From: Candidatus Limnocylindrales bacterium
GTDB taxonomy: Bacteria > Chloroflexota > Limnocylindria > Limnocylindrales > CSP1-4
Reading direction: 5' to 3'
NCBI GenBank assembly: GCA_038327765.1
Contig: JBBQLI010000002.1
Span: 933-64,932 of the forward strand
Length of the DNA stretch: 64,000 bases
The position numbers and the translations under genes are program-made. A model generated the notes under the pieces. The model worked only from the letters and a program-made list of their open reading frames with translations. It had not been told where the DNA came from and ran no database searches. Shown one piece after another: positions 37,981-49,584 of the stretch; within the stretch, counting starts at the first letter, position 1; each line of letters opens with the position of its first letter.

Positions 37981-40059
37981 GTGACCGATCGGCGTCTGTC
38001 GCTGGCGGGCTGGCGTGAGTCGCTCGCGGGCGCGAGCGATCTGCTCAGCCACTGGCGTGCGCTGCTGGCGGTCAGTCGCCCACGGACCTGGCTCAGCACG
38101 GCCATCCCGTTCCTGGTCGGTGCGGTCGAGGTCCAGCGCGGGCTGAGCCCCGCCATCATCCTGGGGATCATCTATTTCCTCGGCCCGTATCACCTGCTGG
38201 TGAACGGCGAAACGGCCCTGTCCGGCGCCCTGGCGGGCGCGAGCATCGCGCAGCGCCGGATCGCCATCGCGCTCACGAACCTGCCATTACTGATCGTCAT
38301 CGTGCTCCTCGCGGGCGCGACGGCCGGTCTGGGGCTGACCCTCGCCGTCGCCGCGGCCGTCGCATCCACGGTCCCGCCACTCCATGTGAGGGAACGGGCG
38401 CTGCGGGACGCGCTGACGGGCGCGCTCCAGGTCGTCGTCCCCGCTGTGTGCGGGTTCCTCGTCGCGGGTCGGGCGCTGGAAGACGTGCCCTGGCCCGCCA
38501 TCGTCGCCTTCACGCTCTGGGTGATCGCGTCCCAGGCGTTGCGCGCGATCGGGACGGTCGGCGTGGATCGGGACGCGGGGCCGGCCCTCATCGCGTCGAT
38601 ACTCGGGGGCCGGGTCACCGCGGCGCTGTCGATCGGCGGCTATCTCCTGGCAGCAGCGATCGTCGCGACCCTTGGCCCCCTCGGCGTGGTGGCCGCATTC
38701 GGGCTGATCCTGTATGCCCTGCTGCCCGTGATGATCCTGGCCTCGCCTCGCGACGATCCCGAGCCGGAGCGCAGCGCCGCCCGCCGCGCCTGGGCTGGCT
38801 TCCTCGGTCTCGATATCCTCGTGGGCTTGTGGCTGGCCCAGCTCCTCCTGCGGCAGTGGGGCCTTGTGACCGTCTCCGCGTTCTCGATCGCACTCTGGGC
38901 GTCGGCGATCATCCTCGTGTATGCCGTCCTGGATATCGTGGCGACCCGTCTCAGCACCCGTCGGCGCGTCGCGGACGACCGCACGGCCGCGCACGCCGCG
39001 GTCCCATCGCTGACGATCGTCGTGGCGGTCCGTGACGGGGCCGCGACCGTGGTCGACACCATCGATGCGCTCTGCCAGCAGACCTACGCGGACGGGACGA
39101 TCCTCGTCGTCGACGACGGGTCGACCGATGGGTCCGCGGCGATCGCGGCCGCTCGACTCGGGCGGGCCGGGACGGTCATCAAGGCACCGCCGAGACCGCC
39201 CGGCTGGACCGCTCGGAGCTGGGCCCGTCATGTCGGTGTCGAGACTGCGACGACCGACCTGGTCCTGTTCGTCGACGCGGACACGCACCTTGTCCCGGTG
39301 GCGGCGCGGATCCTCGTGGAGCAGTTCCAACTGGGCCGGTACGAGCTCCTGTCCGGTGTCCCAGGCTACGACATGCCGACGCGCGCGGAGCGGGCCGCGG
39401 TCCCCGGCTTCCCGCTCCTCCTCTTCGGGTTCGTGCCCGTGTGGCTGTCGGCGGTGACATCCGGGCGTCCGGCTCCCGCCGCGTTCGCCTACGGCCCGTT
39501 GCTGCTCGTCCAGCGCGCGGCGTACCAGGCCTGCGGCGGCCTCGCGGCGAAGCCCGCGACCGCGCGAGAGGACGTGGAGCTCGCGCATACCTTTGCCCGA
39601 GCTGGGCAGCGCATCGGGACGGTCCACGCGGCCGACCTCGCGACGACCCGGCGCTACCGGACGGTGCGGGCCACCATGGCCGGCTGGCGACGCAGCCTCA
39701 TCCCGAACGCGGGTGGCTCGCTCGCCGGCGGGATCGCCACGATCGCGTTGGAGCTCCTGGTCTTCGTCGTGCCGTTCGTGCTGCCGCCTTTTGCGATCCT
39801 GAGCCACCAGGAGCCTCGATCGGTGATCGTGAGCTTCGTGCCCCTCGCCCTGCTGCTGGTCATGCGGCTCGCCCTCACGCTCACCCAGCGGCAATCCGCG
39901 TGGACGATCCTGTGGCATCCGGTGACCGTCGTCCTGACACTGGTCGGCCAGCTGCTGGGCATCGTGGACCACCTAACGGGGCGCGGCCTCGAGACCGGTG
40001 GGACGGCCGTACTCATCCCCGAGGGCCTGGTCGCCGAAGGGTCGGTCCCGGAAGGCTAG
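37981..40059 (+). CDS. Polytopic membrane fusion: UbiA-prenyltransferase-like N-terminal domain + GT2 glycosyltransferase + C-terminal TM region
   Basis: The N-terminal about 330 aa hold multiple TM helices with a UbiA-like second motif (GVDRDAG), but the first Asp-rich motif is degenerate (LLVNGETALSG). The GT2 core reads PSLTIVVAVRDGAATVVDTIDALCQQTYADGTILVVDDGSTDGS...FVDADT. Confidence 0.6.
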   Translation: MTDRRLSLAGWRESLAGASDLLSHWRALLAVSRPRTWLSTAIPFLVGAVEVQRGLSPAIILGIIYFLGPYHLLVNGETALSGALAGASIAQRRIAIALTNLPLLIVIVLLAGATAGLGLTLAVAAAVASTVPPLHVRERALRDALTGALQVVVPAVCGFLVAGRALEDVPWPAIVAFTLWVIASQALRAIGTVGVDRDAGPALIASILGGRVTAALSIGGYLLAAAIVATLGPLGVVAAFGLILYALLPVMILASPRDDPEPERSAARRAWAGFLGLDILVGLWLAQLLLRQWGLVTVSAFSIALWASAIILVYAVLDIVATRLSTRRRVADDRTAAHAAVPSLTIVVAVRDGAATVVDTIDALCQQTYADGTILVVDDGSTDGSAAIAAARLGRAGTVIKAPPRPPGWTARSWARHVGVETATTDLVLFVDADTHLVPVAARILVEQFQLGRYELLSGVPGYDMPTRAERAAVPGFPLLLFGFVPVWLSAVTSGRPAPAAFAYGPLLLVQRAAYQACGGLAAKPATAREDVELAHTFARAGQRIGTVHAADLATTRRYRTVRATMAGWRRSLIPNAGGSLAGGIATIALELLVFVVPFVLPPFAILSHQEPRSVIVSFVPLALLLVMRLALTLTQRQSAWTILWHPVTVVLTLVGQLLGIVDHLTGRGLETGGTAVLIPEGLVAEGSVPEG

Positions 40060-40161: not shown

Positions 40162-41559
40162 ATGCGCACGCTCATCGTCAACGGCACGATCGTCACCGCG
40201 GACGGTTCGACTGCGGCCGACGTCCTCATCGATGGCGAGGTCATCGTCCAGGTCGGGCGCGACCTGCCCGCCGCGGGCGTCAACGCCGACGAGACGATCG
40301 ATGCGACCGGGAGGTATGTGATCCCGGGCGGCATCGACGTCCATACGCACATGGAATTGCCCTTCGGCGGCACCTTCGCCAAGGACACGTTCGAGACGGG
40401 GACCCGCGCCGCCGCGTTCGGCGGCACCACGTCGATCGTGGATTTCGCCGTCCAATCGCGCGGGAAGTCGCTGCGCGAGGGCCTGGATGCGTGGCACGCG
40501 AAGGCCGAAGGGAACGCCGTCGCCGACTACGGGTTCCATATGATCATGAGCGACGTCAATGACGCGACGCTCGCCGAGATGGATGGCCTGGTCGCCGAGG
40601 GGATCCCGGACTTCAAGCTGTTCACCGCGTATCCGGGTGTCTTCTACAGCGATGACGGGGCGATCTTCCGGGCGCTCCAGCAGAGCGCGAAGAACGGCGG
40701 GCTGATCATGATGCACGCCGAGAACGGGATGGCGATCGATGTCGTGGCGGCCCAGACGGTCGCCGCCGGCACCACCGATCCGATCGGGCATGGGCTGGCG
40801 CGCAAGCCGATCTTCGAGGGCGAGGCCACCAATCGCGTCATCCGCCTGGCCGAGGCGGCCGGAGCGCCGATCTACTTCGTGCATCTCTCCGCCTCTGACG
40901 CGTTGAGCGAGGTCCGCGCCGCGCGAGATCGGGGCGCGAAGGTCTTCGCCGAGACGTGCCCGCAGTACCTGTTCCTCTCGCTGGAGGATCTCGGGCACGG
41001 GTTCGAAGGCGCCAAGTTCGTGTGCTCGCCACCGCTGCGCTCGAAGGAGACCTGGGACGACCTATGGACGGGCCTGGTCAAGGACGACCTCCAGCTCGTG
41101 GCGACGGACCATTGCCCGTTCGATTTCCACGGCCAGAAGGAGCTGGGGGTCGGCGATTTCCGCAAGATCCCGAACGGGCTCCCGGGCGTCGAGGACCGGC
41201 TGGACCTCCTCCACGACGGAGGTGTCGTGGCCGGCCGCATCACGCGCGAACGGTGGGTGGAGATCGTCTCGACAGCGCCGGCCAAGCTGTTCGGGATGTA
41301 CCCGCAGAAGGGTGCCGTGGCCGTTGGTTCGGACGCAGACCTCGTCATCTACGATCCGAACCGGCGGCACACGATCTCCGCGACGACCCACCACATGGAC
41401 GTCGACTATTCCTGCTACGAGGGCCGCAGCGTCCAGGGCGGGTCGGACGTGGTGCTGAGCCGCGGGTCCGTGATCGTCCGTGACGGCGCGTTCACCGGGA
41501 AGAAGGGCCACGGCCGGTTCGTCAGGCGAGCTCCGGCGGAGTACGTTCGCCACGCCTGA
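40162..41559 (+). CDS. hydA: Dihydropyrimidinase / D-hydantoinase
   Basis: MRTLIVNGTIVTADG...VIPGGIDVHTHMELPFGGT...MMHAENG...FVHLS...ATDHCPF, the cyclic amidohydrolase metal ligands. Confidence 0.9.
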   Translation: MRTLIVNGTIVTADGSTAADVLIDGEVIVQVGRDLPAAGVNADETIDATGRYVIPGGIDVHTHMELPFGGTFAKDTFETGTRAAAFGGTTSIVDFAVQSRGKSLREGLDAWHAKAEGNAVADYGFHMIMSDVNDATLAEMDGLVAEGIPDFKLFTAYPGVFYSDDGAIFRALQQSAKNGGLIMMHAENGMAIDVVAAQTVAAGTTDPIGHGLARKPIFEGEATNRVIRLAEAAGAPIYFVHLSASDALSEVRAARDRGAKVFAETCPQYLFLSLEDLGHGFEGAKFVCSPPLRSKETWDDLWTGLVKDDLQLVATDHCPFDFHGQKELGVGDFRKIPNGLPGVEDRLDLLHDGGVVAGRITRERWVEIVSTAPAKLFGMYPQKGAVAVGSDADLVIYDPNRRHTISATTHHMDVDYSCYEGRSVQGGSDVVLSRGSVIVRDGAFTGKKGHGRFVRRAPAEYVRHA

Positions 41560-42481
41560 GGGTCGCGCGGTCGTCGTCATCGACGGCGGGCTTGCCACCG
41601 AACTCGAGGCGCGCGGCCACGACCTCAGCGACCGACTCTGGTCCGCGCGGCTGCTGCTGACCGAGCCCGATGCGATCGAGGCCGTCCACCTCGCCTATTT
41701 CGACGCCGGTGCCACGGTCGCGACGACCGCCAGCTACCAGGCGACGATCCCGGGCTTCGAGGCTGCCGGGATGGATCGCGAGATCGCGCTGGACGCGATC
41801 CGCCGGAGCGTCGCCATCGCGCAGCAAGCACGCCAGCGCTTCGCCGACGAACGTGGGGTCCCGATCGAGGACCTTCGCATCGCGGGTTCCGTCGGACCAT
41901 ATGGCGCGATGCTCGCGGACGGTTCCGAGTACCGCGGCGACTACGACCCGGGCGCCGCGGCGCTGGTCGAGCTTCACTTGCCGCGGATGGAAGCGCTGCT
42001 CGAGGCCGGCGCGGACCTACTCGCGCTCGAGACGATCCCGACGGTCCGCGAGGCCGAGGTGCTCGTCCGGCTGGTGGAGTCGCTCGGTGCCACGGCGTGG
42101 CTCTCGTATCAGTGTCGCGATGCACGCTCGACCGCGGCCGGTGAACCGATCGAGACCGCCGTGCAGGTGGCGGATGGAGTGACGGAGATCGTCGCGGTCG
42201 GTGTCAATTGCACGCCGCCACGAGCCTTGCCGGGACTCCTGCTTCGCGCCGAAGACGTGGCGACGCATCCGCTGATCGCCTATCCCAACGCCGGAGACCG
42301 CTGGGAACCTGGGTCACACCGCTGGGTCGCCGATACCGGCGGTGGCTACGACCCGGTGGCCGTCGCCGGCTGGCGGTCGCTCGGCGCGACATGGCTCGGC
42401 GGGTGCTGCGGGACGGGCCCGGACGAGATCGCCCGCCTCGTCGCGGCGCTGGCGAACGGGCAGGCGCCGGCGGCCGGCTGA
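41480..42481 (+). CDS. mmuM: Homocysteine S-methyltransferase
   Basis: VIDGGLATELE...YQAT...GVNCT...GGCCGTGPDEI (Zn-binding Cys). The only in-frame canonical start is ATG 41480, which gives an 80-nt overlap with hydA. Confidence 0.8.
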   Translation: MTARSPGRRATAGSSGELRRSTFATPEGRAVVVIDGGLATELEARGHDLSDRLWSARLLLTEPDAIEAVHLAYFDAGATVATTASYQATIPGFEAAGMDREIALDAIRRSVAIAQQARQRFADERGVPIEDLRIAGSVGPYGAMLADGSEYRGDYDPGAAALVELHLPRMEALLEAGADLLALETIPTVREAEVLVRLVESLGATAWLSYQCRDARSTAAGEPIETAVQVADGVTEIVAVGVNCTPPRALPGLLLRAEDVATHPLIAYPNAGDRWEPGSHRWVADTGGGYDPVAVAGWRSLGATWLGGCCGTGPDEIARLVAALANGQAPAAG

Positions 42482-42631: not shown

Positions 42632-43663
42632 ATGTCGTTCGATCCCGCGGTCATCCTGCTCGCCCTCGGGCTGTCGATCCCGCCATCGTTCGCGTACCTC
42701 GTCGTCCTGAACGCGGTGGACCGGTACGAGAAGGAACCGTGGACCGTCCTGCTGGCCTGCGTCGGGTTCGGCGCGTTCGTCGCGCCGGCGGTCTCGGCGA
42801 TCGTGCTCGCCGCCGTGGGTCGGCCCGTGTCGCTGGCGCCGCAGTTCGCGCTGGGTCCAGGCTCCGGCGATGCCCTGGTCGGGATCGTCGAAGAGGTCGT
42901 GAAGGCGAGCTGCCTGCTGGCGATGGTGCGCCTCGTCCGCGACGAGTTCGACGACATCCTCGACGGGGTCATCTACGGCGCCGCGATCGGGGCCGGGTTC
43001 GCCGCCACGGAGTCGTTCCTCTTCGCCGCCGGGGGCACGGGTTCACTTGACGGCGGGACGATCGGGGCGCTCCTCTTGGCGGGTCTGGATCACGCGTTCT
43101 ACGGGATGGTCTTCGGTGCCGTCGCCGGGTACGCCGCAGGCCAGCGTGACGGGTCGTCGTCGTGGTCGCGCATCGTGATCGTCTACGGCGTCGCAACGGC
43201 GGCGCTCGCCCACGCACTCCACGACACGTTGCCCGCCATCCTGACCCGCGTCCTCGATCGGCCCGATGCGGCGACCGGCACCCTGACCACCGCCATCGCC
43301 GAAGGCATCAACGTGCTCGGGCTCCTGACCCTTGCCCTCGTGATCAAGGCCGCGTGGCATCGCGAGGGTCGGGTCGTTCGCGAGCAGCTGGCCGACGAGG
43401 TGACGAGCGGCGTGCTGGGAGCGGACGACGTCGAGACGATCGGATCCATCCCGCGCCGGCTCCGCGAGCAGCGCGACGCGTTCCGACGTGATGGCCTGGG
43501 CGGCGTCCGCGCCACCCGCCGCCTCTACGCGACCGCCGGGGAGCTGGCATTCGCAAAGGAGCAGCTGGCCGTCCGGCGCCGCGTCCGACCGTCAGAGACG
43601 CGGGTCGATGACCTGCGCGCCGAGATCCGCCGCCTGCGGACGCAGCTGGGCGACACGCGATGA
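42632..43663 (+). CDS. PrsW-family intramembrane metalloprotease
   Basis: It has multiple TM helices, VDRYEKEPW, EEVVKASCLL (EExxK), FDDILDGVIYGAAIGAGFAATESF and LAHALHDTL (HxxxD), followed by a roughly 110-aa C-terminal soluble, likely cytoplasmic region. Confidence 0.85.
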   Translation: MSFDPAVILLALGLSIPPSFAYLVVLNAVDRYEKEPWTVLLACVGFGAFVAPAVSAIVLAAVGRPVSLAPQFALGPGSGDALVGIVEEVVKASCLLAMVRLVRDEFDDILDGVIYGAAIGAGFAATESFLFAAGGTGSLDGGTIGALLLAGLDHAFYGMVFGAVAGYAAGQRDGSSSWSRIVIVYGVATAALAHALHDTLPAILTRVLDRPDAATGTLTTAIAEGINVLGLLTLALVIKAAWHREGRVVREQLADEVTSGVLGADDVETIGSIPRRLREQRDAFRRDGLGGVRATRRLYATAGELAFAKEQLAVRRRVRPSETRVDDLRAEIRRLRTQLGDTR

Positions 43664-45324
43664 CGTCAGCGGCGGTCCACAGCGCGACGACCGCGAGGCG
43701 ACTGACGGCGGTCGCCATCTCGCTCTGGCTCTCGCTGGCCGGCACCGGCACGGCCCAGGCCGCCGGGATCCAGCTTGCTGCTGAGCCCGGCTCGCTCCAT
43801 CGGGCGCTCCTCTATCACCTCGACTTCGCCACCGACGTCGATGGCACGCCGATCGACGAAGGCGACACGTTCCAGGCTGGGATCCCGCGCGTGCTGACGC
43901 TGCTTGGCTGGGACCACGTGCCGTCCGGGACCTCGCTCCGCCTCCGCATCTACGCAGACAGCCGGCTCGTGTATGACGACACCCGACCGGTCACCCGCGA
44001 GGACGATGGCGGGTTCGTGTTCGATCTCGAGCCGTCCGGCGGCGTCCCTGCCGGCGCGTACGTCGCGCAGCTCGACTACAACGGCGTGCCCGATGAGATC
44101 GCGACGTTCGCCGTGATCCCCGCCGGCGCAGCGCCCGGGCCTGGCACGACGACACCGACCCCGGCTGGCCGCTCGAGCCTCACGGGCCCGGTCCCGTACG
44201 CGAATCCCGCCGACGTCCTGGTCGTGACGCGCGCATCCGTGCTCCGGCGGACGCTCGGCGCACGAGCCGATGCGGTCCTCGCCGCCGCGGCCAAGGTCGG
44301 CACGCTACGCGACCTCGAGGCCGATGGGGTCAAGCGCGCGACTCCGGACGCGGCCATCGAGGAGGTCCATCGCCTCCTGCGGGCCGGTCGCTATCGCTAC
44401 CTGCTGATCCTGGGCAACGACGACGCGGTGCCGTACGCCCACATGGCGAACCCGGTGGCCGCTGACGAGCGCGATGTGCTCGACAGCTGGGATCTCCCGG
44501 CCGACTGGGTCCCCTCCGACGACCCGTACACGGACCTGGACGGAGATCAGTGGACGATCCCGGACATCGCCATCGCCCGCATCCCTAGCAGTGATGACGC
44601 GGATCTGCTCCTCACCCAGCTCGGGGTGAACATCCCGACGGACAACGGCGGATTCGCCCTGATCAACCAGAAACGCCGTGGCGTCGCCGAGCCCGTCCTC
44701 GAGACGATGGCCGGCGCGATGGATCTCGACCGGCACTACACGCCGCCGACGACGCCCGCCTCGATCCCGGCGACCTCGCGAGCGGCACGCTACACGTACA
44801 TCCTGCTCCACGGGATCGGCGTCACCACCGATAGCTGGGTCTCGGACCTGGTGGCGTGGTCGCCGGAGGACATCAAGAACCTCGACGGGTCGTGGATCGT
44901 GAAGGCAGGCGGGCAGGTCGACGCGATCGGCGTCGCCCAGGCCGGGGTGGCTGGCGGGATCGTGGACGTCGGCGCGTGCTACGGCGGATGGACGCTCGAC
45001 ACGATCCAGGCGCCGACGCACAAGACAGCCGCAAACGATCTTGCGCTGGATTACCTGCGATCAGGGACGCGCGCCTACGTCGCCGATACGCATATCTCGT
45101 ACAGCGCGCCGATCGGCCTCGACGGCGTCCCGGTGGCGCGGACCGGCTTCGAGCTGCTGTTCTGGCGCGCGGTCGTGGCGGGCGCATCGCCGATCGATGC
45201 GTTCCAGGCGGCCAAGGTGGGCTTGGGCAGGGCGCTCGATGCGGCCGTCGCGGCGGGCGACAGCGACGCGGCCGCGCTCGACTACAAGACCATCGAGATC
45301 ATGGGCTACCTGGGCCGGCCGTGA
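43660..45324 (+). CDS. Secreted clan-CD cysteine peptidase-like protein (peptidase C25 / caspase-like fold)
   Basis: ATGA overlap with the prsW stop. The signal TTARRLTAVAISLWLSLAGTGTAQA may be Tat-type. A C25-like block follows: YRYLLILGNDDAVPY...SDDPYTDLDGDQWTIPDIAIARIP. The His-Gly and Ala-Cys dyads are each preceded by hydrophobic strands (YTYILLHGIG; GIVDVGACYGG). Confidence 0.6.
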   Translation: MTSAAVHSATTARRLTAVAISLWLSLAGTGTAQAAGIQLAAEPGSLHRALLYHLDFATDVDGTPIDEGDTFQAGIPRVLTLLGWDHVPSGTSLRLRIYADSRLVYDDTRPVTREDDGGFVFDLEPSGGVPAGAYVAQLDYNGVPDEIATFAVIPAGAAPGPGTTTPTPAGRSSLTGPVPYANPADVLVVTRASVLRRTLGARADAVLAAAAKVGTLRDLEADGVKRATPDAAIEEVHRLLRAGRYRYLLILGNDDAVPYAHMANPVAADERDVLDSWDLPADWVPSDDPYTDLDGDQWTIPDIAIARIPSSDDADLLLTQLGVNIPTDNGGFALINQKRRGVAEPVLETMAGAMDLDRHYTPPTTPASIPATSRAARYTYILLHGIGVTTDSWVSDLVAWSPEDIKNLDGSWIVKAGGQVDAIGVAQAGVAGGIVDVGACYGGWTLDTIQAPTHKTAANDLALDYLRSGTRAYVADTHISYSAPIGLDGVPVARTGFELLFWRAVVAGASPIDAFQAAKVGLGRALDAAVAAGDSDAAALDYKTIEIMGYLGRP

Positions 45325-45665
45325 CGGCGCACGGGCGCCTGATCGGAGCGTGGACCACCGCGCTCGTAGCCGGCTGGCTGGCGGTCGCCCTGCTGGGCGG
45401 ACCCGTGGCGACTGCGGCGGACGACCTGGGGGCGGCGCTCCACCCCGCCACCCCGGTGACCGAGGCGATCGCACGGACCAGCGCCGCGACCATCATCCGC
45501 CTCCAGTACCAGGAACTGACCGCGCTCGAGCCGACAGTCACGCACGCCACGGACTTCGGCGGCGATCGCTGGGTGCTCGTCTATGCCCGGTCGAACCCGG
45601 TCTCGGGTGTCCGCGTCTCGATCGACACGGTCCGTGGAGTGGTCCGCCTCACGAACTTCCCCTGA
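45321..45665 (+). CDS. Small exported/membrane-anchored PepSY-like protein
   Basis: GTGA overlap with the preceding stop. The N-terminal hydrophobic segment reads LIGAWTTALVAGWLAVALLGG. The C-terminus reads DRWVLVYARSNPVSGVRVSIDTVRGVVRLTNF, which resembles the PepSY pattern (Y.v......v.vDa.tG.v). Confidence 0.5.
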   Translation: MTAHGRLIGAWTTALVAGWLAVALLGGPVATAADDLGAALHPATPVTEAIARTSAATIIRLQYQELTALEPTVTHATDFGGDRWVLVYARSNPVSGVRVSIDTVRGVVRLTNFP

Positions 45666-45686
45666 CGTCCTCCCCTTCCCCTTCGG

Positions 45687-45711
45687 CAAGATTGCGTCGG
45701 ATGCAATCTTG
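45687..45711. terminator. 9-bp perfect hairpin in a low-GC convergent gap (possible bidirectional terminator)
   Basis: caagattgc-gtcggat-gcaatcttg, 22 nt after the PepSY-like stop. The Rieske gene ends at 45877 on the other strand. Confidence 0.5.
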
Positions 45712-45876
45712 TCCGGTCCGTCATGGGTGCGGCGATGGAACCGTGCGCTCGGCGCACGATCTGACGGTCCGGATCCGCTCCGTTGTCGGACCCATGCGTG
45801 AGACGCACACGATGCCGGTCGGCCACGAGTCCGACCGATATAGATTGCATTTCGTGCAAGGAGCCCTTGGGGCGCC

Positions 45877-48714: not shown

Positions 48715-49584
48715 TCAGGAAGGGGCCGCTGCCTCCATGACGGGCCGGCCGAGACGCCTGGTCTCCCCTACCAGGACCACGAGGCTCCCGACCGCCACGG
48801 CAACCGCGATGATCGTGCCGACATTGGCCGGTCCGAGCAGCGCCGGGTCTCGCCAGGTGACCGAGACGACGGCACGCGCGATGGCCCACGCCGCGAGTCC
48901 AAGCAGGAACGGTCGCCCGTCGCGCACCGCGAAGGCGCCACTGATGAGGAGTGCGGTCAGCGCGATGGCCAGGATGAGCGCCGCCGTGCCTTCGTAGATC
49001 TGCGACGGCGTGGCGGCGAAGGCCGGCGCCAGCGATCCCCACGGGCCGGGCCCGGCGTAGGCCGTCGCCCATGGCTGGAGAGAGGGCTGGCCCTGGCCGG
49101 CACCGCCGAGGACCATCGCCAGCTTGCCGCCCCCGATGGCGACGAGCAGCGGCACGGTCAGGAGGTGCAGCCAGCGACCGACCGGCGCCCGCAGGAGACG
49201 TGCCACGTAGGCCCCGGTCAGCAGGCCGCCGACCACCCCGAGCCCGAGTTCCATGCCGCCCGCCGACGGATCGAGCAGCGCGCCAGGGTTCGCCCCGTAG
49301 AAATCGAGATGCAGGAAGGCATACCCGAGCCGGCCACCCAGGACCGCGCCAGGGACGACGCCGACCACGATGAACAGCAGGTCATCCGGGCGGAGCTGCG
49401 CCCGGCGGGCCATGAGGCCCGCCACGCTGAGCACGGCGACGATGATCAGCCCGAGGGCGACCGTCTGCCAGCGCACGACCAGGCCGTCGGCGACATGGAG
49501 CACGGGGTCGAAGGCAAGCGTCAGGACGGCGATGGGCACGATGGCAGGAGTGTAGCGAACCGCCGGGTGTCGGCCAGCCGACAC
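48715..49584 (-). CDS. Prolipoprotein diacylglyceryl transferase (Lgt)-family membrane protein, divergent
   Basis: FDPVLHV...VRWQTVALGL, GGRLGYAFLH, GGMELGLGVVGG and PSQIYEG align with Lgt landmarks. The GRLGNFxNGE block, however, reads GGKLAMVLGGAG. Confidence 0.6.
   Translation of the reverse strand: MSAGRHPAVRYTPAIVPIAVLTLAFDPVLHVADGLVVRWQTVALGLIIVAVLSVAGLMARRAQLRPDDLLFIVVGVVPGAVLGGRLGYAFLHLDFYGANPGALLDPSAGGMELGLGVVGGLLTGAYVARLLRAPVGRWLHLLTVPLLVAIGGGKLAMVLGGAGQGQPSLQPWATAYAGPGPWGSLAPAFAATPSQIYEGTAALILAIALTALLISGAFAVRDGRPFLLGLAAWAIARAVVSVTWRDPALLGPANVGTIIAVAVAVGSLVVLVGETRRLGRPVMEAAAPS

Follow-up and report, generated by a model that had tools for sequence, protein, structure and literature searches.

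The 64,000-nucleotide (nt) window analysed here, a stretch of contig JBBQLI010000002.1 of the Candidatus Limnocylindrales bacterium assembly GCA_038327765.1, carries on its forward strand three co-directional open reading frames (ORFs), evident in both the ORF list and the raw sequence: gene 1 (42632-43663, 343 amino acids (aa)), gene 2 (43660-45324, 554 aa) and gene 3 (45321-45665, 114 aa, with a GTG start). The stop codon of each upstream gene overlaps the start codon of the next by 4 nt, in ATGA at 43660-43663 and in GTGA at 45321-45324, and both overlaps, pointed out in a preliminary description of this DNA made from the letters alone, can be read directly in the sequence. The same three genes were called independently on a public contig that encodes identical proteins. 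The preliminary description proposed that they form an undescribed three-part proteolytic module. Here, we characterized the three proteins, their relatives and the surroundings of both. Judging by sequence, the trio comprises a small membrane partner and two proteases that belong to different classes and are probably active. The three are co-inherited and translationally coupled, and it is very probable that they function together as a single proteolytic unit at the cell surface.

Gene 1 encodes a polytopic membrane protein of the PrsW protease family, and an orthologue is present at all loci for which upstream sequence is available. Its catalytic membrane core (aa 35-203, 42734-43240) matches the Pfam profile PF13367 (PrsW-protease) with 85.6 bits (cutoff 23.5, E 4.3e-24), while the score against the NCBIfam PrsW equivalog NF033739 (52.7 bits) stays well under the cutoff of 225, so gene 1 is a member of the family and not an equivalog. 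The motifs from which the family had been called beforehand, EExxK, FDDILDG, AAIGAGFAATE and HALHD, are all present, with the codons of E87 and E88 at 42890-42895 and those of H197 and D198 (in HALHD) at 43220-43225. In a set of 30 orthologues, H197 and D198 are retained throughout, E127 in 29 and E87 in 28 proteins, and E105, D107, D108 and D111 are invariant; with the core PrsW residues thus kept, gene 1 looks active. The C-terminal part (aa 242-343, 43355-43660), already described as a soluble tail, is arginine-rich, contains 23 lysine or arginine residues, a conserved GELAF motif and no hydrophobic segment, and is probably cytoplasmic, based on its charge and hydrophobicity. It is conserved in the orthologues as well as in distant, stand-alone PrsW homologues, and matched no Pfam domain and no known signalling domain. 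Topology prediction by positive-charge counting was uninformative apart from this tail, and a sequence search of the PDB with gene 1 yielded nothing useful. We regard gene 1 as a putative glutamic-type intramembrane protease from a PrsW subfamily that is characterized by the cytoplasmic arginine-rich tail.

Gene 2 encodes a predicted exported, gingipain-like (C25-like, clan CD) cysteine peptidase. Its AlphaFold2 model (predicted local distance difference test score (pLDDT) 86.6, predicted template modelling score 0.85) consists of a signal helix, a beta-sandwich, a low-confidence linker and an alpha/beta domain, and bears out the beta-rich N-terminal domain and Pro/Thr linker foreseen in the preliminary description. 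The export signal occupies approximately aa 1-34 (43660-43761), including a hydrophobic helix at aa 11-23 with low pLDDT, and is followed by the beta-sandwich at approximately aa 45-155 (43792-44124), whose strands lie within aa 55-153 and are modelled with a pLDDT above 90. The flexible Pro/Thr/Gly-rich linker (approximately aa 156-178, 44125-44193) has a pLDDT of 57-76 and varies in length among homologues, and the catalytic domain spans aa 179-554 (44194-45321).

The assignment to C25 and clan CD, likewise suggested beforehand, is confirmed by the agreement of three kinds of prediction. First, gene 2 matches Pfam PF01364 (C25) over aa 244-316 with 30 bits (cutoff 23, E 4.1e-7), a partial match to profile positions 65-138 (74 of 374). 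Second, in an alignment of 31 sequences, H384, G385 and C440 are invariant, along with the C-terminal residues Y550, G552, R553 and P554 (Y-x-G-R-P, here YLGRP). The codons of His384 and Cys440 lie at 44809-44811 and 44977-44979; in the model, His384-Gly385 follows the strand 378-382 and Ala439-Cys440 the strand 434-437, and C440 falls on the ACYG of a homologue in which the Pfam C25 match includes this region. Third, a Foldseek search against the PDB retrieved the gingipains RgpB (1cvr, E 8.8e-10) and Kgp (4rbm, E 2.5e-8), both with a probability of 1.0, ahead of separase (1e-4) and Csx29 (2.7e-4). Separase and the CRISPR-associated protease Csx29 are clan-CD-type proteases as well. With the invariant H384, G385 and C440 and a predicted fold that matches the gingipains, the enzyme looks active. 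The beta-sandwich had only generic Foldseek matches (RhoGDI, UNC119, the Wzt carbohydrate-binding domain and the RsgI4 sensor), NCBIfam contains no match for gene 2, and a PDB search with the sequence profile of its family found nothing. The 184 homologues, clustered at 90% identity, are all approximately 550 aa long, and the named ones, which come from Candidatus Limnocylindrales or Chloroflexota, are annotated as 'C25 family cysteine peptidase'.

Like the gingipains RgpB and Kgp of Porphyromonas gingivalis (MEROPS C25, clan CD), gene 2 encodes an apparently exported protein with the His-Gly and Ala-Cys dyads placed after hydrophobic strands. It differs from them in a low identity (approximately 13%) and a longer His-Cys spacing (56 residues), and we detected no type IX C-terminal domain, no Ig-like or haemagglutinin C-terminal domains and no gingipain-type prodomain; conversely, the gene 2 subfamily has two features of its own, the beta-sandwich at the N-terminus and YLGRP at the C-terminus. 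Export is well supported by sequence. The claimed RR-containing signal peptide holds for most of the family, as 28 of the 31 homologues carry RR close to the N-terminus (including P0104, where VVRRL lies just beyond the first 25 residues), and fails in the remaining three, which carry SR, HR or GR, so only the second arginine is invariant. The twin-arginine (Tat) pathway may be the export route. Six of the 31 have a lipobox in the signal region, and these variants would place the product outside the cell and, in some species, anchor it by a lipid. A gene for LGT (prolipoprotein diacylglyceryl transferase) lies on the reverse strand at 48715-49584, 3.4 kb downstream; the lipoprotein pathway hence exists in this organism, which fits the lipobox variants of its relatives.

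PorU, another C25 member, acts as a transpeptidase/sortase in type IX secretion. One could accordingly imagine that the gene 2 product sorts or matures surface proteins as a transpeptidase or sortase, with PrsW stripping the membrane anchors from the cargo, and the clan-CD fold with its dyad, the proximity to the membrane, the lipobox variants and a conservation across the class that suggests an envelope housekeeping role would suit such a function. We nevertheless consider it very unlikely, given that the top structural matches, RgpB and Kgp, are endopeptidases, that we identified neither a cargo family nor a sorting motif, and that nothing ties PrsW to sorting.

Gene 3 encodes a small protein that is predicted to span the membrane once (or to be secreted) and has a helix-plus-four-strand ectodomain. 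Its model (pLDDT 88) contains helices at aa 3-25, 32-40 and 48-62 and four strands within aa 72-113, a plausibly PepSY-like arrangement, and the top Foldseek match is the C-terminal domain of YpeB (5boi), which is composed of PepSY repeats (probability 0.99, root-mean-square deviation 3.2 Å over 74 columns, E 0.17); all other matches have a probability of at most 0.30. Homologues form 22 clusters and come from the same lineage only. The hydrophobic N-terminal segment (aa 8-28, 45342-45404) retains W11, L15, G18, V22, L25, G26 and P28, and its mean pairwise identity (0.61) exceeds that of the ectodomain (0.53). In gene 2, the order is reversed, as the signal peptide has a mean pairwise identity of 0.35 compared to 0.55-0.61 for the mature domains. 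The conservation of the gene 3 segment above that of its own ectodomain argues for a retained membrane helix under functional constraint, and the contrast with the gene 2 signal supports a functional role of this helix.

The combination of a PrsW-family protease with a single-pass membrane protein in one operon invites comparison with classical regulated intramembrane proteolysis, in which gene 3 would be an anti-sigma-like PrsW substrate that controls transcription. Yet the cytoplasmic part of gene 3 amounts to approximately 7 residues at most and leaves no room for an output domain, gene 1 scores far under the PrsW equivalog cutoff, and, as noted before, no sigma/anti-sigma pair is adjacent: we found no sigma or anti-sigma gene within approximately 5 kb of the trio, and no sigma factor is conserved at any related locus. 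Of the explanations considered here, signalling of this kind appears the most improbable.

The trio is inherited together throughout its lineage. Among genomes, we found 42 loci with the gene 2 family, comprising 38 with both flanks, three cut by contig ends and one from Anaerolineales. All 42 are from Chloroflexota or Limnocylindria metagenome-assembled genomes, so the setting is Chloroflexota, Candidatus Limnocylindria, rather than Actinomycetota as had been supposed. The order gene 1-gene 2-gene 3 is the same in 38 of the 38 loci with both flanks, and the sole locus without genes 1 and 3 encodes a 26%-identical Anaerolineales protein of different architecture. The 4-nt overlap between genes 1 and 2 is present in 31 of these 38 loci, and genes 2 and 3 are spaced by -4 nt in 26, by -1 in four and by +1 in four, with the exceptions stemming mostly from frameshifted long-read assemblies. 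Moreover, a metagenome search with the gene 1 family recovered full-length orthologues (48-57% identity), with gene 2 present and the trio in its usual order at 16 of the 17 loci that have enough downstream sequence. Gene order and overlaps are preserved down to approximately 40-50% protein identity, with zero rearrangements in more than 50 loci. Because the order recurs at every informative locus and the 4-nt overlaps at most of them, the arrangement is not due to chance. It does not extend further: none of the seven flanking genes in the window recurs near the trio in other loci, and clustering of all flanking ORFs revealed no further gene common to more than 11 loci, only neighbours at the subclade level. 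We therefore rejected a larger operon, and the absence of any other common neighbour indicates that the trio is a self-contained unit.

The explanation that best accommodates these data is a Limnocylindria-specific, translationally coupled operon producing a membrane-proximal, extracytoplasmic proteolytic module in which gene 3 is the bridge, and we give this explanation as a whole an even chance of being correct. Export signals and predicted topology place both the cysteine peptidase and the gene 3 ectodomain outside the cytoplasmic membrane. As a small type-II membrane protein, gene 3 would most likely touch PrsW in the membrane through its conserved transmembrane helix, and its PepSY-like ectodomain would most likely bind the gingipain-like endopeptidase, thereby tethering, stabilising or restraining it. 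Such bridging would be analogous to the role of YpeB with SleB in Bacillus spores, a bicistronic pair in which an N-terminally anchored PepSY-type partner is likewise encoded right after an exported hydrolase. The analogy has its limits, since YpeB is approximately four times larger and carries three PepSY domains, SleB is a lytic transglycosylase and not a peptidase, and PrsW is not involved. PrsW and the cysteine peptidase could share substrates, or each could act on the partner of the other, and as an outcome, envelope or membrane proteins might be cleaved or trimmed in a regulated manner. We infer complex formation, the adaptor role, a step of inhibition or activation and the nature of the substrates alike. 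A precedent is found in Bacillus subtilis, where PrsW cuts RsiW, after which extracytoplasmic trimming proteases and then RasP act.

Several observations weigh against the bridged module, beginning with the sequences of its membrane components. Two positions of the EExxK motif are relaxed among the 30 gene 1 orthologues, in which E88 is kept in 17 and K91 in 10 cases. Gene 3 matches no Pfam or NCBIfam profile, and the PepSY profile (PF03413) recognized neither gene 3 nor 19 members of its family scanned singly at E-values up to 10; one family member had a weak PepSY_TM match (0.025) on the membrane helix, which we regard as noise. The structural match to YpeB has a high E-value, and the N-terminus of gene 3 would also fit a signal peptide that is cleaved off (GGP, then A30-T31-A32 with the cut before A33). 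The earlier designation of gene 3 as PepSY-like is consequently plausible for the predicted fold, where YpeB is the evidence, and is without sequence-level support for membership in the PepSY family.

The same points bear on a more specific sub-model, the cascade put forward in the preliminary description, in which gene 3 is a PepSY-type inhibitor that keeps the cysteine peptidase inactive at the membrane, and PrsW cuts gene 3 upon an envelope signal so that the peptidase is released or activated. PepSY propeptides are known to inhibit M4 peptidases, and YpeB itself is cleaved during germination. The best structural match of gene 3, the conservation of its juxtamembrane and transmembrane residues, as expected of a specific protease recognition site, the conserved PrsW residues and the tight coupling of the three genes would all be in line with such a cascade. 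On the other hand, it has to contend with the missing PepSY profile match and with a metagenomic allele, described below, that keeps genes 1 and 3 without the peptidase they would control, and we find it rather unlikely. The small alpha-plus-four-strand PepSY/FTP propeptides of M4 (thermolysin-like) peptidases offer a precedent for the predicted restraint of a secreted peptidase; they are, however, intramolecular propeptides of metallopeptidases, whereas gene 3 is a separate membrane protein encoded beside a cysteine peptidase. In its most elaborate form, the proposal would be that of a class-wide envelope protease machine, with gene 3 docking PrsW by its helix and holding the peptidase by its ectodomain until a PrsW cut of gene 3 activates or releases the peptidase. 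Were this true, it would provide the first defined substrate and output of a PrsW protease other than a sigma-factor system, but we deem it unlikely.

Further points against an obligatory module come from distant relatives. Among 1.84 billion representatives searched with a profile, approximately seven clusters (at 50% identity) have the full gene 2 architecture, with scores above 500 bits. Below these, scores reach at most 216 bits, the catalytic domain alone is shared, and the contexts are different (metallo-beta-lactamase fusions, PKD, VWA, dockerin and CarboxypepD_reg). None of the three second-tier C25-like loci examined (Anaerolineales, a metallo-beta-lactamase fusion and Gemmatimonadales) has a PrsW neighbour. 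On the side of gene 1, distant homologues with 26-36% identity were found at 56 metagenome loci (L067 and L071-L125; GC content 51-67% in 13 sampled), which match the whole profile including the tail and are devoid of gene 2, gene 3 or a common neighbour. This subfamily shares the arginine-rich tail with an ELAF motif and an invariant VDRYEKEP and EE..K; a partner common to its distant members was sought and not found. As far as the sequences tell, the linkage between PrsW, gene 2 and gene 3 is clade-specific, confined to Limnocylindria, and the existence of stand-alone PrsW proteins with the same tail implies that gene 1 derives from a widespread subfamily, to which the pair of genes 2 and 3 became attached in the Limnocylindria lineage.

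Even within the linked loci, one metagenomic allele departs from the pattern. At L061:4969-5447 (contig Ga0315291_10002506), gene 2 has shrunk to a 42-codon in-frame stub, MSHRLAAVASRWGPRAGRGAGFVLPFFVSEGFPAGHMVYLGRP, which joins the start of gene 2 to part of its beta-sandwich and to its final eight codons. Genes 1 and 3 remain intact. Both overlaps persist, as the stub starts in ATGA and ends in CCATGA with gene 3. The allele may be an artefact of assembly, although the in-frame join of three pieces speaks for a real deletion. If real, it makes gene 2 dispensable in at least one genome, and what is preserved is translation through to gene 3 and the pairing of genes 1 and 3. Retention of the overlaps with genes 1 and 3 suggests that translation to gene 3 matters and that the two genes are linked.

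The stand-alone PrsW relatives make mere co-expression a serious rival, in which a housekeeping PrsW with substrates of its own would be followed by a secreted peptidase, serving for instance to scavenge nutrients, and by the chaperone of this peptidase, both inserted downstream and fixed in the ancestor of the class. Independence of this kind would account for same-tail PrsW homologues without a common neighbour, for the many secreted architectures in which C25-like domains occur without PrsW, and for the loss of gene 2 at L061. It accounts poorly for overlaps and gene order held down to such low identity over so many loci without rearrangement, for the persistence of both overlaps around the stub, and for a gene 3 transmembrane helix constrained beyond what a simple anchor or signal needs; we thus regard it as serious yet unlikely. 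The bridged module is still preferred, albeit in a modified form. Of the three-part module proposed at the outset, the nearly universal synteny within the lineage stands, and its indivisibility does not, because PrsW with the same tail stands alone elsewhere and gene 2 is gone from one allele that retains genes 1 and 3. The trio is better described as a PrsW gene with an attached, lineage-specific pair of a peptidase and its partner than as an indivisible three-part machine.

The outgroup C25-like genes have arrangements of their own. The Anaerolineales homologue (L042:3584-7275) is an 873-aa protein, 26% identical to the catalytic half of gene 2, encoded directly downstream of an S41/PDZ (CtpA-like) protease, which constitutes a different two-protease pairing; a PDB sequence search with this protein gave nothing useful. 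The nearest outgroup C25-like domains (L044:5974-8973 and L045:1231-2541) are found in metallo-beta-lactamase fusions of approximately 850 aa or as stand-alone proteins of approximately 360 aa, and each of these two genes precedes a small lysine/alanine-rich ORF ending in ...QG that is unrelated to gene 3.

To our knowledge, a physiological PrsW substrate is known essentially only for the anti-sigma systems of Bacillus and Clostridioides, even though the PrsW family is very widespread. Gene 1 shares with B. subtilis PrsW, the site-1 protease of the RsiW/sigma-W pathway, the Pfam family PF13367, the polytopic architecture and motifs of the EExxK, FDxxLDG, GFxxxE and HxxxD/N types, and the B. 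subtilis pathway likewise needs additional extracytoplasmic trimming proteases. It departs from that protease in not being an equivalog, in its extra tail of approximately 100 aa, in the relaxation of E88 and K91 within the clade, and in its coupling to a cysteine peptidase and a small membrane protein instead of a sigma/anti-sigma pair. Three contexts have been described for PrsW, namely the cutting of anti-sigma factors at site 1, the freeing of fused polymorphic toxins and a fusion with cytoplasmic signalling domains (Zhang et al. 2012, PMC3482391). The trio fits none of the three; its likeness to the toxin and signalling systems described there (PMC3482391) is that these show PrsW-family proteases at work outside sigma control, in processing linked proteins as well as with cytoplasmic extensions. 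It differs from the polymorphic-toxin systems in having no fused toxin, no immunity gene and no polymorphism, as well as in its vertical, class-wide conservation. In addition, none of the three proteins matched a PADLOC model, and a defence or toxin function was dropped for this reason.

In the full-text literature, we found no description of PrsW linked with C25 peptidases, caspase, PepSY or Limnocylindria, in keeping with the impression formed from the sequence alone. The parts are members of known families, and gene 2 homologues are already named in public annotation; it is their combination that is undescribed. By hard-wiring a PrsW protease to an exported cysteine peptidase and a very small membrane partner, the trio presents a candidate second mode of PrsW action that can be tested, and a reconstitution would require no more than three proteins. 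The gingipain-like (C25) peptidases are moreover extended into Chloroflexota, without a type IX secretion domain. Chloroflexota are generally regarded as single-membraned. For Limnocylindria, an abundant and uncultured class of soil and freshwater bacteria, the trio offers a function-level lead for a conserved gene set. Nothing established is overturned by these findings, which concern an uncultured lineage and for which the mechanism is a proposal.

Signals for transcription around the trio are faint. A hairpin of approximately 15 paired bases at 45683-45716 (forward strand), 18 nt 3′ of the gene 3 stop codon and between convergent genes, might serve as a terminator lacking a T tract; its fold of -30.7 kcal/mol over an 81-nt stretch is marginal (z-score -1.97), a terminator scan found no canonical terminator and likewise missed this hairpin, and a promoter scan found no sigma-70-like promoter. 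Genes 1, 2 and 3 have no paralogues within the window. Their neighbours in the window encode a family-2 glycosyltransferase, an amidohydrolase, an S-methyltransferase, a Rieske oxygenase, an aldehyde dehydrogenase, LGT and a BTAD regulator. The mechanical ORF of the S-methyltransferase (41480-42481) overlaps the amidohydrolase gene (40162-41559) by 80 nt; since public annotation calls a gene of only 236 aa, the true start is probably farther downstream, near 41771. The glycosyltransferase, encoded by a 692-aa ORF at 37981-40059, combines a long polytopic N-terminal region with the family-2 glycosyltransferase domain at aa 345-645.

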